Shown one piece after another: positions 16,477-21,730 of a stretch of DNA of 64,000 nucleotides (positions are counted from its first letter, which is position 1; every line of letters begins with the position of its first letter). The stretch is taken from assembly GCA_049317385.1 (NCBI GenBank), contig JBMOIJ010000010.1, positions 527-64,526 on the forward strand. The letters run 5' to 3'. The DNA comes from Acidimicrobiia bacterium. Its GTDB lineage: Bacteria > Actinomycetota > Acidimicrobiia > IMCC26256 > JBMOIJ01. A model generated the notes under the pieces. That model was not told where the DNA came from, ran no database searches, and was given only the letters and a program-made list of their open reading frames with translations. A program made the position numbers and the translations under genes.

Positions 16477-16965
16477 GTGCGGCGAGTTGCGATTGGTATC
16501 GCGGTGGTCCTGGTGAGCGCAGTGGTTGCGCACGCGCTCCTGCGCGGGAACGCACACCCGCGCGCTGTGGTGGAACGCGCGGTCGACGGCGACACGCTCG
16601 AGGTGCGTGTCGGCACCCGTGTCGAGACCATCCGGGTCCTGGGCGTGAACACGCCCGAGACCCATCACCCCACCAAGCCGGTGGAGTGTTTTGGACCCGA
16701 GGCGGCGGCATTCACGGCGGCGCGGCTCACTGGGGCCACGGTCGAACTCGAAGACGACGTGGAAGCACACGACAAGTACGGCCGTCGGCTGGCGTACGTG
16801 TGGGTGGATGGACATCTCTTCGAAGATGAACTGCTCCGCGCCGGATACGCGCGGCTGCTGGTGATCGCGCCCAACACTGAGCACGCACGCACGTTTCTGC
16901 GGGCGGAGCTCGACGCGCGTCGACGCGGGGCAGGGTTGTGGCGCGCGTGTGAAGGGCGCAACTAG
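16477..16965 (+). CDS. Thermonuclease (SNase-like) with N-terminal signal/anchor
   Basis: VDGDTL, IRVLGVNTPE, DKYGRRLAYV and ARRRGAGLW. Confidence 0.9.
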   Translation: MRRVAIGIAVVLVSAVVAHALLRGNAHPRAVVERAVDGDTLEVRVGTRVETIRVLGVNTPETHHPTKPVECFGPEAAAFTAARLTGATVELEDDVEAHDKYGRRLAYVWVDGHLFEDELLRAGYARLLVIAPNTEHARTFLRAELDARRRGAGLWRACEGRN

Positions 16966-18989
16966 GCGCAGGTGCCGGCGAGGACCTCGAGGACTTCGGC
17001 GCCGTAGCGGTCGACGAACGCGGACGAGCAGCCCGCCGTGACGAGGTCGCCGGTGGCCTCGGGTGCCGAGCCGGCGATGGCCGCGATGAGCGTGTCGCTG
17101 AGGATGGCCGACTCGACGATGCCGAGGGCGCGCGCGTTGCGGGCCCGCCATTCGGCCAATGCTCGCCGACGGTGCGCGACTTCGTGGGTGGCGGCTGCGT
17201 TGAGCGGTGCGGCGATGGCGTCGGTGGCGACTGGTTGGTCGAGCGCGGCGCGGAGCGCGTCGACTCGCTCGAGCGGCACGACTGCGACGGGCGGTACGTG
17301 GTCGGCGACAGCATCGACGATGGCTTCGATCCACGGCGAAGGGTCACGCTCGGCCGCGCGTTCTCCGAAACTGCGGGTTTGCGCCCACGAGACGTGGAGT
17401 TCCCGACGGGCGCGGCTGAGCGCAACGTAGGCCAGGCGCCGTTCCTCGGTGAGTGCCGCCGCTGACGTGGCGTACGAGATGGGCACCAGTCCGTCTTCGA
17501 ACCCGATGACGTACACGACGTCCCACTCGAGTCCCTTGGCCCGGTGGAAGGTGATCACGTCGACGGCGTCGCGCTGCATTGGTTCCGGATCGCGGCGCAG
17601 CGATGCGGCGAGGGAACTGCGGAACCCGGCCGCACTGGCGGCAGGCCCGTCGGCCAACACGTACTCATGAGCGAGTTCGATGAGCGCGTCGAGCTCGCCA
17701 CGTTCGTGGGGCGCGGCGTTGGCTGCCGCATCTTCCAGATCGCGGATGTGCCCACTGAATGGCCGGTTGGGCGTGGCGCGCACGATCTCGTCGAGCGCGT
17801 CGAGGTTTGCCTTCACCGCGGGGCGGTGCAAGAACGCAGCTGCGACCCGGACGCGGTTGGGGACGGCGGCGTCTTCGAGCGCGCGCCCCATGAGCTCGGC
17901 CTGCGCGTTCGTGCGCGCCAGCACGGCGATCGATGACCAGGACGTGCCGTGACGCGCCAGCTGACGGATGGACGTAGCGATGCCCGCACACTCGGAGGCA
18001 TCGTCGGGGTACTCGGTGAACGTTGGGAGCGGCGCATGGGAGGTTGCATGTTCGGGGCGTTGCGGTTCGACGCGATCGGCGGGAGCCAGCACGGCCCGGG
18101 CGGCGGCAATGACCGGCGCCGTGGAGCGGTAGTTGGTGCGCAGCTCGATGACTTCGGCGCCCGGGAACGACCGGGTGAACTCGGTGAGGAGCTCGGGGTC
18201 GGCACCGGCGAAGGAGTAGATGGCTTGGTCGGGATCGCCGACCGCGAAGAGGTCGGCCCGGTCGCCGAGCCACGCCTTCACCAACCGCACCTGGGCCGGA
18301 CTCGCGTCCTGGAACTCGTCGACATGGAGATGGCGGAACCGCCACCGCTGCGCAGCGGCAAAGTCACGGTCGCGTTCGATGAGGTCAGCACACCCAATGA
18401 TGAGATCGTCGAAGTCGACGAGGCGCTTGCGACGACGTTCCTGTTCGTACTGGCGATACAGCGTGGCGACGCGCTCGAGGGGCAGTCCTGGCCGGCGGTG
18501 CGCAGCGATTGCCGCGTGTTCGTAGCGCTCGACGGGCACGCCGCGCGACTTGGCCCACTCGATCTCGCCGGCAACGGCCCCCGCGAGCTTCAGCGAGTTG
18601 CCGCCAACCGGCGCGGCTTCCAGCATGGGGATGAGCAACCGGGCTTTGCGTTCGAGGATGCGCGGCGGGGGACGGTTGTGGTCGACGGCGTACCGCCGCA
18701 GTTGCGCGAGCGCAATGGCGTGAAACGTGCCGGCCGTGAGCTGATCGTTGACGCCGAGGGCGCGCAACCGGGTGCGGAGTTCGCCGGCGGCTTTGCGCGT
18801 GAACGTGACGGCCAGAACGTGCTCGGCGTCGGCGCGTTCAGTGCGGATGCGCCACGCGATGCGGCGGGTGAGGACGCGGGTCTTGCCCGAGCCGGCGTTC
18901 GCGAGCACGGCCAGTGGCGCAGCGTCGGAGGTGACGGCCGCGAGTTGGTCGGCATCGAGGCCGGCAAGGAGCGGGGCGAGCTCGCGCAT
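16962..18989 (-). CDS. uvrD2: ATP-dependent DNA helicase UvrD2-like with C-terminal HRDC domain
   Basis: AGSGKTRVLT, VDEFQD, VGDPDQAIYSF, NYRST, TFHRAKGLEW, EERRLAYVALSRAR and an HRDC-like tail. Confidence 0.9.
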   Translation of the reverse strand: MRELAPLLAGLDADQLAAVTSDAAPLAVLANAGSGKTRVLTRRIAWRIRTERADAEHVLAVTFTRKAAGELRTRLRALGVNDQLTAGTFHAIALAQLRRYAVDHNRPPPRILERKARLLIPMLEAAPVGGNSLKLAGAVAGEIEWAKSRGVPVERYEHAAIAAHRRPGLPLERVATLYRQYEQERRRKRLVDFDDLIIGCADLIERDRDFAAAQRWRFRHLHVDEFQDASPAQVRLVKAWLGDRADLFAVGDPDQAIYSFAGADPELLTEFTRSFPGAEVIELRTNYRSTAPVIAAARAVLAPADRVEPQRPEHATSHAPLPTFTEYPDDASECAGIATSIRQLARHGTSWSSIAVLARTNAQAELMGRALEDAAVPNRVRVAAAFLHRPAVKANLDALDEIVRATPNRPFSGHIRDLEDAAANAAPHERGELDALIELAHEYVLADGPAASAAGFRSSLAASLRRDPEPMQRDAVDVITFHRAKGLEWDVVYVIGFEDGLVPISYATSAAALTEERRLAYVALSRARRELHVSWAQTRSFGERAAERDPSPWIEAIVDAVADHVPPVAVVPLERVDALRAALDQPVATDAIAAPLNAAATHEVAHRRRALAEWRARNARALGIVESAILSDTLIAAIAGSAPEATGDLVTAGCSSAFVDRYGAEVLEVLAGTCA

Positions 18990-18995
18990 GGCCGA

Positions 18996-19017
18996 ACGGT
19001 AGCGAGCCGGTGTGACA
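18996..19017 (-). promoter_or_regulatory. PafBC/RecA-independent-type leaderless promoter of uvrD2
   Basis: Minus strand reads TGTCAC-ACCGGCTCGC-TACCGT, then 6 nt, then the ATG. Confidence 0.7.
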
Positions 19018-19083
19018 GCCGTCCTGGCCGGCCGTGCTTGCCCGGACGGCCAGGGAAGTGGCCCCCCGAACCAGGCCCGAGAC

Positions 19084-19351
19084 GAGAGAAGGCCCCGAGT
19101 AGCCGAACGCTGCGTGCGCAGCTCCCGGACTCCTCGGGGCCCTTCCCTGTGCCGGCCAACCCGGCCCCGGAGGACCGCCTTCGCCAGGCACCGGCTCCGT
19201 GCACCTTGCGGCGCACCGTGCCCACCAACGCTCACCGCCAGCTCCCGAGCACCCCCGGCCGCCCTTGCGGGCCGCACCAGCGGCTGACCCTGCCGACCCC
19301 GAAAGGCCCTCGAGTCTGCGCTCGAAAACCGGTGAATCGGTTTTCGTTGGC
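19084..19351 (-). ncRNA. Putative structured small RNA (~270 nt), family not recognised
   Basis: It has an upstream TGGACA-N17-TACATT promoter. The 5' GCCAACG pairs with CGUUGGU, there are two GCAA-capped and one UUCG-capped hairpins with G-U pairs favouring the minus strand, and a long 3' hairpin. No credible ORF. Confidence 0.6.
19089..19144 (-). terminator. Long hairpin ending the putative sRNA
   Basis: AAGGGCCCCGAG...GCUGCG-CA-CGCAGC...CUCGGGGCCUU followed by CUCUC (weak U tract). Confidence 0.55.
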
Positions 19352-19358
19352 GAACGGC

Positions 19359-19387
19359 AATGTACGACGCGCGCGGTCGCTTGTCCA
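19359..19387 (-). promoter_or_regulatory. Sigma-A-type promoter
   Basis: TGGACA (19387-19382), 17-nt spacer, TACATT (19364-19359), with an AT-rich tract upstream. Confidence 0.7.
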
Positions 19388-19423
19388 ATGGAATTTCGAA
19401 AAACGCGCGAGGTTTCTCGGAGG

Positions 19424-19450
19424 GTGTTGCGCGTGTTGCGCATGTTGCGC
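19424..19450. repeat. Three tandem 9-mers (RTGTTGCGC)
   Basis: GTGTTGCGC GTGTTGCGC ATGTTGCGC read directly. Confidence 0.8.
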
Positions 19451-19455
19451 GCGAG

Positions 19456-19941
19456 TCAGATGGTGGTGGTCAACACGAGGCCGTGGTACGCCTCGGGGAT
19501 GCGTTGCCGCAGATCGCCGAACCCCACCTGGGCGTCGACATCGGTGGTCCACGTTGCCTTCACGCCCGAGAACTGTGAGAACCGTTGCTCGATGTTGCCG
19601 CGGGCCAACACGGGGATGATGTAGGCGCGGGTGACCACGAACTTGCCGGACTTCTTCGTCACCTGGGTTCCGGCCTGCTTCACCGCCGGGTCGGTGCTCT
19701 GCACCATCTGATCGAAGGTGCGGTTCGCCTGAGCCTCGGCCCGGTTCTTCTCGATCCGGGTGATTGCGCCGCCGTGGCCGGAGGCCACGATCGTGCCGGC
19801 GAGGTACAGCGAACCCAAGAAGACCGCCACGAAGATCATCAACATGAACGTGACGCCGACCACCAGTCCGGCGAGGCGAGTACCCGCCCAGGCCACTCCA
19901 CGGCCCTTGGACGACGACGATTGAGCAACGGCGCTGGTCAC
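19456..19941 (-). CDS. Hypothetical membrane-anchored protein
   Basis: Long hydrophobic helix followed by a polar domain. TAGCGT and GGAGG precede GTG 19941. Confidence 0.7.
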   Translation of the reverse strand: MTSAVAQSSSSKGRGVAWAGTRLAGLVVGVTFMLMIFVAVFLGSLYLAGTIVASGHGGAITRIEKNRAEAQANRTFDQMVQSTDPAVKQAGTQVTKKSGKFVVTRAYIIPVLARGNIEQRFSQFSGVKATWTTDVDAQVGFGDLRQRIPEAYHGLVLTTTI

Positions 19942-20004
19942 GTCCTCCACGCTAGGCGGTGGGTCGGCCACCGTGCCCGTACCGGGTTCCCGTAGGGTTC
20001 GGGC

Positions 20005-20538
20005 ATGGCTCGTTTCGCAGTGTGGGCGGTAGGCGCCGACCAGCCCGGCATCGTTGCGGGGGTGACCGGGGTGGTCCTGGAGCAGGGGGGGAACCTCGCC
20101 GACTGCTCCATGACGATCCTTGCCGGCCAGTTCGCCATGGTGCTGGTCGTCGAGTTCCCCGACGATCGGCCCGTCGCCGACGTTGAGGCGGCGTTCGCTC
20201 CGGTGGCGGAGCAGCTCGAGCTCGGGGTGTCGGTGCGGGGGTTGGCGAACGCTCCAGCGGGCGTGGCCGGCTCACGCTTCGAACTTGCGGTCTACGGCGC
20301 CGACCGGCCGGGCATCGTGCACGCGGTGGCGGCGGCGCTCGCCGACGCCGGGGTGAACATCACGGACCTTGCCACCCGCGTGATCGGTTCCAGCGAGACT
20401 CCGGTGTACGCCGCGCTGGTCGACTGCGTTGTACCGGACTCGGCGTCGGTGGATGCGCTCCGCACGCGCGTCAATGCGTTGGCTGCCGAGCTCGGGCTCG
20501 ACGCCACCTTGCACCCGGCCGACGTCGACGTCCTGTAG
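20005..20538 (+). CDS. Double ACT-domain protein (GcvR-like)
   Basis: GADQPGIVAGV and GADRPGIVHAV ACT repeats. Leaderless TAGGT-type -10 (TAGGGT, 6 nt before the ATG). Confidence 0.88.
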   Translation: MARFAVWAVGADQPGIVAGVTGVVLEQGGNLADCSMTILAGQFAMVLVVEFPDDRPVADVEAAFAPVAEQLELGVSVRGLANAPAGVAGSRFELAVYGADRPGIVHAVAAALADAGVNITDLATRVIGSSETPVYAALVDCVVPDSASVDALRTRVNALAAELGLDATLHPADVDVL

Positions 20539-20544
20539 CGGCCA

Positions 20545-21045
20545 ATGTCCGTTCGACCGGTTCTGCAGCTCCCGGCTGCAGTGCTCAAGCACCCAACGGC
20601 CGAGGTCACGAGCATTGGTGACGACGAGCGCGCGTTGGCGCGCGATCTGCTCGACACCATGGCGGCGTCACCCGCGTGTGTCGGGTTGGCAGCGAACCAG
20701 ATTGGCGTGGCGTTGCGCGCGTTCGCGGTCGATGTGAGTGGACACAAGAAGGCCGACTCGTGCCACGCCGCAGTCGTGTTGTTCAACCCGGTGTTGATCG
20801 GATCGTCCGCGCCGGTGGTGGCGCGCGAAGGGTGCATGAGTGTGCCCGACCTCACCGGCAACGTGGCCCGTCCCACCGAAGTGGTGGTGCAAGGAATCAC
20901 GCCCGAAGGAACCATGCGTGTCATTGAAGCGAATGCGTTCGAAGCCCGAGCCATCTTGCACGAGCTCGATCACCTGGACGGCCTGGTCTTCCTCGACCGG
21001 GTGGTGTCGGTCGCCGATGTGTTCCGTCGGGTGAAGTACCAGTGA
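20545..21045 (+). CDS. def: Peptide deformylase
   Basis: GLAANQIG, EGCMS and HELDHLDG. Confidence 0.95.
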   Translation: MSVRPVLQLPAAVLKHPTAEVTSIGDDERALARDLLDTMAASPACVGLAANQIGVALRAFAVDVSGHKKADSCHAAVVLFNPVLIGSSAPVVAREGCMSVPDLTGNVARPTEVVVQGITPEGTMRVIEANAFEARAILHELDHLDGLVFLDRVVSVADVFRRVKYQ

Positions 21046-21103
21046 CGCCGGTTCCCACCGGCAAAGCGCGAGCGCTCGCAACCGCGGGGCCTAGAGTCGA
21101 CGC

Positions 21104-21730
21104 ATGGCTTTCCCGCACGATGTGCTGAACGAAGGCGAAGAGCTCGCCCTCGATCTTCGCCCGCACTGGTGGTACTTCTGGAAGCACGCCGTGCTCGGCG
21201 TGCTGCTCTTCATTGCGTTCATCTTGATGTTCCAACTCAGTGGAACGCCGAAGAAGCTCTTGGCCCCAGTGTTGGCCATCGCGGCTGTGGTGTGGGCCGT
21301 GTGGTTGGTGCTCAAGTACTTCCAGTGGACCTATACGCACTTCGTCGTCACGAGTGACCGGGTGATTTGGCGCACCGGGGTCATCGCTCGGCACGGCGTG
21401 GAGATCCCGCTCGAGAACGTCAACAACATCAACTTCAAGCAGGGCATCTTCGAACGGATGATCGGCGCCGGCGACCTCATCATCGAATCGGCTGGCAAGG
21501 AAGGGCAGTCGGACTTCGACAACGTTCGTCACCCCGACCGCGTTCAACAAGAGATCTACCGGCAGATGGAAGTCAACGCGAAGAAGACGGCATCGTACTC
21601 GCGTCCCGAGATTCAACACCAGGACTCCATCCCGGCTCAGATCGAACACCTCGCGCGGCTGCGCGACCAGGGCGTCCTCACCCCTGAGGAGTTCGAGGCC
21701 AAGAAGCAGGACCTGCTCAACCGGATGTAG
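21104..21730 (+). CDS. Membrane protein with bacterial PH (bPH_2) and C-terminal SHOCT domains
   Basis: RPHW, two transmembrane helices, GAGDLIIESAG and LARLRDQGVLTPEEFEAKKQDLL. Confidence 0.88.
   Translation: MAFPHDVLNEGEELALDLRPHWWYFWKHAVLGVLLFIAFILMFQLSGTPKKLLAPVLAIAAVVWAVWLVLKYFQWTYTHFVVTSDRVIWRTGVIARHGVEIPLENVNNINFKQGIFERMIGAGDLIIESAGKEGQSDFDNVRHPDRVQQEIYRQMEVNAKKTASYSRPEIQHQDSIPAQIEHLARLRDQGVLTPEEFEAKKQDLLNRM

Follow-up and report, generated by a model that had tools for sequence, protein, structure and literature searches.

The 64,000-nucleotide stretch of Acidimicrobiia DNA analysed here (contig JBMOIJ010000010.1, referred to in its entirety as the window) contains, on the minus strand upstream of the helicase gene uvrD2, a region that we conclude with high confidence to be a stand-alone RNA gene. 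Its predicted product is a divergent member of an RNA family carried by more than 100 genomes; nearly all of these are Acidimicrobiia, and a second class of Actinomycetota supplies a few members. The family is uncatalogued, i.e. it has no matching model in Rfam 15, and no description of it was found in the literature on Acidimicrobiia and actinobacterial small RNAs. With little more than even confidence, we favour a reading of the locus as an independent gene for an abundant, tightly folded RNA of about 270 nt that would act in trans by binding protein, its terminal stem-loop serving both as terminator and as recognition site.

The gap that holds the gene, put at ~470 bp in a first-pass annotation of the window that had proposed an RNA here, measures 466 bp from the stop codon of a minus-strand open reading frame (ORF; TGA 19458-19456) to the uvrD2 ATG at 18989. 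A Pfam search (E <= 0.01) of six overlapping ORFs, 72-201 aa long, gave no match, in keeping with that annotation's view that the gap contains no credible ORF. The parts of the gene are as follows, with helices taken from minimum-free-energy (MFE) folds unless stated:

19359..19387, minus strand: promoter-like site, TGGACA (-35, 19387-19382), N17 spacer, TACATT (-10, 19364-19359)
19085..19351, minus strand: predicted RNA of ~270 nt, its start predicted from the -10 hexamer and its end placed at the foot of the terminal stem-loop
19224..19351, minus strand: 5' domain, a rod closed by GCCAACG (19351-19345) and CGUUGGU (19230-19224), of uncertain inner fold (MFE and constrained folds)
19193..19222, minus strand: hairpin GUGCGCC-GCAA-GGUGCAC (19216-19199), extended by outer pairs and retained in the MFE as well as the constrained fold
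19149..19191, minus strand: third hairpin, GGUGCC...GGCAC with a CUCC-loop inner stem, seen in the MFE fold alone and without comparative support
19081..19151, minus strand: family-defining 3' stem-loop (covariance model R1, 70 bits, E 4.7e-13; covariation)

The near-consensus promoter TGGACA-N17-TACATT, of sigma-70 type, was borne out by a consensus scan, in which it is the sole promoter-like site between 18700 and 19800 (shuffled sequences give 0.0 +/- 0.2). It lies 219 nt upstream of the stem-loop core, within the arrangement found across the family: a promoter of the form TTGAC-N16-19-nAnnnT, by a loose rule, precedes the stem-loop by 85 to ~530 nt in 103 of 126 family loci, and the RNAs are therefore expected to be ~130 to 570 nt long. 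From this start, the minus-strand RNA (19351->19075) folds with an MFE of -165.3 kcal/mol (z = -4.49), a stability reached by none of 200 shuffles, compared with z = -2.51 and 4/200 shuffles for the plus strand of the same region. The G-U pairs of the stem-loop also fit the promoter strand, as does the score of R1, a model built from 49 stem-loops that did not include the copy in the window (minus strand 70 bits, plus strand 35.2 bits).

Part of the fold drawn in the first-pass annotation is recovered. The MFE fold contains three of its helices (the closing stem GCCAACG/CGUUGGU, the hairpin GUGCGCC-GCAA-GGUGCAC and the long hairpin at the end), but the small hairpins that it placed in the 5' domain are not; AAAACCG/CGGUUUU, GGCCU-UUCG-GGGUC and GCCC-GCAA-GGGC exist as sequence, and a fold in which they are enforced is 12.7 kcal/mol worse (-152.6 vs -165.3 kcal/mol). 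A search of metagenome contigs for uvrD2, made to obtain close relatives with which the 5' domain could be examined for covariation, gave a best identity of 61%, and hence no close kin of this lineage.

It is the terminal stem-loop that ties the window to its relatives. When the region was compared by BLAST with 41 genomes of the same order (the genome of the window, G000, and 40 relatives) a match was obtained in 21, G000 included; in the other 20 just the last 60-100 nt, i.e. the stem-loop, align, at 75-84% identity, and the 5' domain of the window is rod-like as in those relatives but cannot be aligned to them. A degenerate stem-loop pattern run on one genome per prokaryote species returned at least 119 loci, labelled nearly all as Acidimicrobiia, Acidimicrobiales or unclassified Actinomycetota, which points to an Acidimicrobiales genome as the source of the window. 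R1 finds a single copy in G000 (99.2% complete) and matches in 28 of 151 sampled genomes of the class, 22 of these in the order of the window. Homologues of the stem-loop are thus found both by BLAST and by covariance model. Outside the class R1 matches six genomes of the phylum sample, among them all five genomes of one genus of another actinobacterial class; the out-of-class members inspected (L255-L259, from G198, G279, G240, G253 and G212) have a promoter and a body of ~210 nt, a CTGGGGA box abutting the -35 hexamer in the version of that genus, and G240, from another family, also carries a copy. Neither uvrD2 nor a Zincin_1 gene, a frequent neighbour within the class (see below), was detected by tblastn at these five loci.

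Sixteen loci were set aside by eye as chance or unrelated matches and left out of all counts (L049-51, 53, 82, 86, 92, 95, 98, 109, 110, 113, 119 and 128 from the pattern scan, and the weak BLAST hits L022 and L023). Three of them, L049, L113 and L119, are probably real members, judged by their resemblance to the promoter-bearing stem-loops of genus g113. In one Microthrixaceae-labelled genome, two identical stem-loops lie on the same strand 518 nt apart (L028:701-742 and L028:1219-1260), an arrangement that indicates two tandem copies of the RNA gene.

The family stem-loop comprises, from the outside in, an outer stem of variable register, the helix P1 (CCCCGAG/CUCGGGG), a 1x1 purine-A mismatch, two pairs AG/CU, a short helix P2, in most members a symmetric G/A-rich internal loop (GA/GA or GGA/GAA), a helix P3 of 4-5 pairs, and a UUCG or GNRA loop. 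The copy in the window follows this plan, with its P1 core at 19139-19093, the mismatch, AG/CU, short P2, an internal loop, the covarying P3 and a tetraloop; its internal loop, purine-rich in most relatives, is largely paired. Pairs were counted on a model-based alignment of 86 sequences (A3), which replaced a MAFFT alignment of 119 stem-loops (A1) that misaligned the upper helix and for which RNAalifold gave 11 pairs. Across A3, 96.2% of cells are paired and 10 of the 19 pairs show double-sided changes (121 cells). None of 500 shuffles matches the alignment on any of five pairing measures, including the number of pairs with double changes, and sliding the partner strands lowers pairing to 37-51% (maximum 50.7%). 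The stem-loop sequence and its internal loops are nearly invariant across the family, and the upper helices covary.

These observations bear on the simplest alternative, namely that no RNA gene exists and that G+C-rich intergenic DNA merely contains a palindrome acting as a protein operator or as the terminator of the upstream gene. In its favour, R1 also scores the opposite strand of the stem-loop (35.2 bits), whose core is an inverted repeat, and high-G+C DNA folds well in any case, as the plus-strand z of -2.51 illustrates. However, the compensatory changes preserve pairing, the G-U pairs suit one strand only, and the promoter is retained at variable distances upstream in 103 of the 126 loci. 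At 41 loci, moreover, the gene upstream is divergent, so the hairpin can there terminate the RNA alone. We accordingly regard this alternative as very improbable.

Sequencing runs argue in the same direction. Four of 11 listed runs were searched, one of which gave no contig. Two freshwater metatranscriptome runs of one study each yielded a short contig, 210 nt (19094-19303) in one and 157 nt (19099-19255) in the other; both fall entirely within the predicted RNA and differ from the window at a single position, 19223, which the MFE fold leaves unpaired as a linker base. In a second study, a DNA run is identical to the window over 18868-19398. Two RNA runs had no cover on the flanks of the RNA, which we do not take as evidence, missing cover being uninformative. 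The contigs from RNA libraries support expression of the RNA, without amounting to proof, and they count further against a purely DNA-level palindrome.

Several points weigh against the reading favoured here. Pairs were counted on an alignment that had itself been fitted to the model structure, and the invariance of P1 and AG/CU is partly a product of construction, as loci L024-L142 were collected with a pattern that fixes those bases, so that the nine invariant pairs are partly fixed; the same P1 and AG/CU bases nevertheless recur in the 20 other genomes found by BLAST. A scan of the window found no canonical intrinsic terminator, the stem-loop being followed by a pyrimidine-rich tail (CUUCUCUCGUCUC), and TTT occurs within 16 nt of the stem in just 48 of 126 loci. 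The metatranscriptome contigs show neither strand, ends nor level, and RNA libraries can contain DNA. Finally, the 5' domain of the window has no alignable relative, which leaves ~200 nt of the RNA predicted from folding energy.

The neighbourhood raises a second alternative, in which the RNA is a cis-acting leader of uvrD2 and the stem-loop an attenuator whose read-through sets uvrD2 expression. The elements concerned are:

16962..18989, minus strand: uvrD2, 675 aa, with UvrD helicase and HRDC domains (Pfam), neighbour of the RNA
18996..19017, minus strand: predicted promoter of uvrD2 itself, TGTCACAC-N8-TACCGT, whose -10 hexamer ends 6 nt before the ATG (leaderless)

Linkage to uvrD2 is frequent. 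Amongst 118 distinct loci a same-strand uvrD2 follows in 72, within 350 nt in 71; the gene lies just downstream in 19 of the 20 BLAST-matched relatives (tblastn), and 16 of 80 metagenomic uvrD2 loci have the stem-loop upstream, 14 of them just upstream on the same strand. With no canonical U-tract terminator in the window, some read-through is plausible. The leader reading is opposed by the 46 loci in which no same-strand uvrD2 follows (some of them uncertain, as just 300 nt of flank were available) and by convergent next genes encoding an EAL domain in L013 and L017, an acylphosphatase in L042 and XdhC in L255 (Pfam); hydrolase and binding-protein genes come next on the same strand in L024 and L065 (Pfam). 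In L169 and L170 the best stem-loop score is on the strand opposite to uvrD2. The leaderless promoter that the first-pass annotation assigned to uvrD2 is, furthermore, a recurrent feature: a motif TGTC[AG]-N11-TAnnnT, with its -10 hexamer 4-10 nt before the start codon, occurs in 40 of the 72 distinct loci, the window included, and we take it to resemble the mycobacterial RecA-independent DNA-damage promoter (RecA-NDp/PafBC). A body varying between ~130 and 570 nt is also unlike a ligand-binding aptamer. On this evidence a leader function is improbable, and the earlier statement that the RNA is not simply the uvrD2 5' UTR (untranslated region) is upheld by its occurrence away from uvrD2, before convergent genes, and beside a uvrD2 with its own promoter.

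On the other side of the RNA, 41 loci (e.g. L010:424-795, minus strand) have a divergent gene for a Zincin_1 (PF06262) metallopeptidase that starts ~30-60 nt from the -35 hexamer of the RNA, giving a conserved order of Zincin_1, RNA and uvrD2; a Zincin_1 gene was sought in the window and not found. Neighbours were typed by targeted tblastn and Pfam, typing by longest frame and all-vs-all ORF clustering proving too noisy in high-G+C DNA. In the window the upstream flank holds these elements:

19388..19404, minus strand: A+T-rich stretch GTTTTTCGAAATTCCAT, abutting the -35 hexamer on its upstream side (read from the sequence)
19424..19450, minus strand: three tandem 9-mers GCGCAACAY (GCGCAACAT GCGCAACAC GCGCAACAC), outside the RNA, lying downstream of the upstream ORF's stop codon and ahead of the RNA promoter
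19456-19971, 20292-20954 and 20921-21649, minus strand: ORFs of 171, 220 and 242 aa, with no Pfam match

The A+T-rich stretch may be an UP-like element, GAAATTC/GAATTTC-like stretches occurring at the same place, 5' of the -35, in many relatives (promoters of 103 loci compared), and the triplet of 9-mers (19450-19424) may be a regulator site. The three ORFs may be wrong frames or novel proteins.

What the RNA might do is constrained by the form of its body. In 94 bodies just 217 of 20042 5-mers are predicted to be unpaired at p > 0.5; among hairpin loops GCAA (64) is the most frequent, followed by UUCG (23) and GCGA (20); and for 52 relatives the predicted 5' domain is a long irregular rod whose closing helix uses the first 6-8 nt of the RNA. 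In these predicted folds, then, the body is a variable string of GNRA- or UUCG-capped rods with almost no single-stranded sequence. The body of L005 exceeds 500 nt and contains ~7 similar hairpins (GGUCACC-YYCGG-GUGGNC), which looks like expansion by hairpin duplication, and three loci (L017, L020 and L021) carry tandem repeats of 11-16 nt in at least three copies, beginning at the foot of the stem-loop or just 3' of it (GCGACCTCAG in L017; GTCGGGGCCCTTCCGC in L021).

Regulators that act by base pairing or as sponges typically come as sibling copies with varying numbers of hairpins, and two tandem copies do occur in some genomes (the identical stem-loops of L028); both features would suit a trans base-pairing small RNA or a Csr/Rsm-type sponge with repeated short binding motifs. 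The near absence of unpaired 5-mers and of any conserved single-stranded seed that we could see nevertheless speaks against such a role, which we hold to be unlikely; the repeated GGA in loops or single strands characteristic of Csr/Rsm-type sponges is likewise not what is observed, the loops being structural tetraloops (GCAA, UUCG, GCGA) and almost nothing else unpaired.

In the mechanism that we favour, the stem-loop would end transcription and shield the 3' terminus. A sequence-specific docking site for a protein would be formed by its invariant helix, the purine-A mismatch and the G/A-rich internal loop present in most members. It is from this putative docking site that a role in trans would follow, the RNA acting as a ribonucleoprotein or as a protein-sequestering or decoy RNA, and neither through base pairing nor as the uvrD2 leader. 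We considered whether the GGA/GAA loop might be a K-turn, a motif in which tandem sheared G-A pairs follow a 3-nt bulge, and rejected this reading on the grounds that the GA/GA loop of shorter variants is symmetric and lacks a bulge; the failure to find an L7Ae-family protein (PF01248) in this genome also counts against it.

Comparison with catalogued RNAs gave no identity for the family. At the gathering score Rfam 15 has no match anywhere in the 64-kb window, in agreement with the first-pass annotation, which by eye had seen no match to Ms1, 6S, SRP, RNase P, tmRNA, raiA or common riboswitches. Relaxing the threshold to E <= 10 over 18900-19600 yields merely sub-threshold hairpin look-alikes on the terminal stem-loop: the small RNA F6 (RF01791), rejected at 22.1 bits (E 0.22, terminal hairpin alone) against a gathering cut-off of 46, and four matches to three microRNA precursor families. 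The signal recognition particle (SRP) RNA, RNase P RNA and tmRNA are rejected as identities, all three having been located elsewhere in the genome by model searches, and 6S RNA (RF00013) is rejected as the region has no match to its model. The raiA motif (RF03072) is similar in being a widespread, clade-restricted and highly structured orphan RNA, and has been reported in Acidimicrobiia (PMC10861870). Its model has no match in the window or the genome, which excludes raiA as the identity; it is found in five of 151 class genomes, all of other orders, and in G166, which has both, it occupies a locus separate from that of the R1 match. CoRP, another recently found and abundant actinobacterial RNA of restricted distribution, binds RNA polymerase (PMC11077062), but its length of 516 nt, its flanking tRNA genes and its confinement to Corynebacterium do not apply here.

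The closest functional parallels are 6S RNA and Ms1. A role analogous to either, in which RNA polymerase, as holoenzyme or core, would be bound by the RNA and thereby stored or sequestered in slow growth, is in our estimation a possibility of rather low probability, and RNA polymerase is, with the same reserve and by analogy, the leading single candidate for a partner. Like 6S, the RNA appears to be of housekeeping type, abundant and structured, and its promoter is strong. Searches with the 6S model gave no match in this genome or in any of 101 class genomes, while SRP RNA, RNase P RNA and tmRNA are found in this genome, and because of this the 6S niche appears empty in the class; a control search with the 6S model was, however, positive in just 4-5 of 14 control genomes, so the miss is weak evidence of absence.

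Ms1 is a ~300-nt, abundant, poorly conserved, rod-like RNA of Actinobacteria whose discovery relied on synteny instead of sequence, HAD-IB hydrolase and oxidoreductase genes serving as markers, and the text of its survey contains no occurrence of Acidimicrobiia (PMC9130861). On the description given there, Ms1 (of Mycobacterium, with MTS2823 and Streptomyces scr3559) and the RNA of the window are both actinobacterial, a few hundred nucleotides long, transcribed from their own promoters, helix-rich, rod-like and weakly conserved, and both belong to groups in which 6S has not been detected (PMC9130861). This similarity of size, shape and poor conservation favours an Ms1-like role, as do the strong conserved promoter and the RNA-library contigs.

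The differences are nevertheless substantial. No Rfam family reaches threshold on the region, even in a search to E <= 10, and so no covariance model links the RNA to Ms1. Unlike 6S, the family is variable in length (~130 to 570 nt), has no closing stem spanning the whole RNA and lacks a central bubble: none was seen in the MFE folds inspected (the RNA of the window, and among the 52 5' domains), and the shortest members inspected have, in MFE folds, no internal loop greater than ~4x4. The absence of a predicted bubble also separates it from Ms1, the conserved module here being the 3' terminal hairpin. The neighbours differ too, with uvrD2 and Zincin_1 for the family in place of the HAD-IB hydrolase and oxidoreductase reported for Ms1 (PMC9130861); in the window the gene lies between uvrD2 and an ORF that matched nothing in Pfam, and the Ms1 markers are not seen.

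A further feature of many relatives lies before the promoter. Of 81 loci, 27 have between one and six copies of TCC[AC]CA or its complement in the 150 nt upstream of the -35, many of them ~11 nt apart, at a density of 6.5 per kb compared with 0.23 per kb in the RNA bodies:

Loci with arrays of TCCACA, TCCCCA or their complements: L025, L028, L033-L035, L042, L065, L024/L041/L054 and others

We take these arrays to resemble DnaA boxes. The promoter region of the window contains none of them, having instead the three tandem GCGCAACAY 9-mers. That the arrays mark an origin of replication (oriC) was rejected, dnaA being 0.27-0.495 of the chromosome away in seven records, and sampling of GC skew on one chromosome likewise contradicts it, with the origin falling near dnaA and the terminus beside the RNA. 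A more ambitious and decidedly speculative proposal, to which we give less credence than to the polymerase-binding analogy itself, is that Acidimicrobiia have here their missing global RNA that binds RNA polymerase (or replication/repair proteins), a third architecture next to those of 6S and Ms1, and that in many lineages its synthesis is coupled to the replication initiator through the phased DnaA-box-like arrays.

Acidimicrobiia are abundant in lakes, soils, sponges and wastewater, yet they have received little bench study and their RNA biology is barely explored. A covariance model of the family would clear a recurrent 'empty' intergenic region from the annotation of Acidimicrobiia genomes, and the near-invariant stem-loop is a ready bait for the protein partner. 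If the RNA is indeed expressed at a housekeeping level and throughout the order, it would likely mark a basic cellular function, as 6S, Ms1, SRP RNA and tmRNA did.

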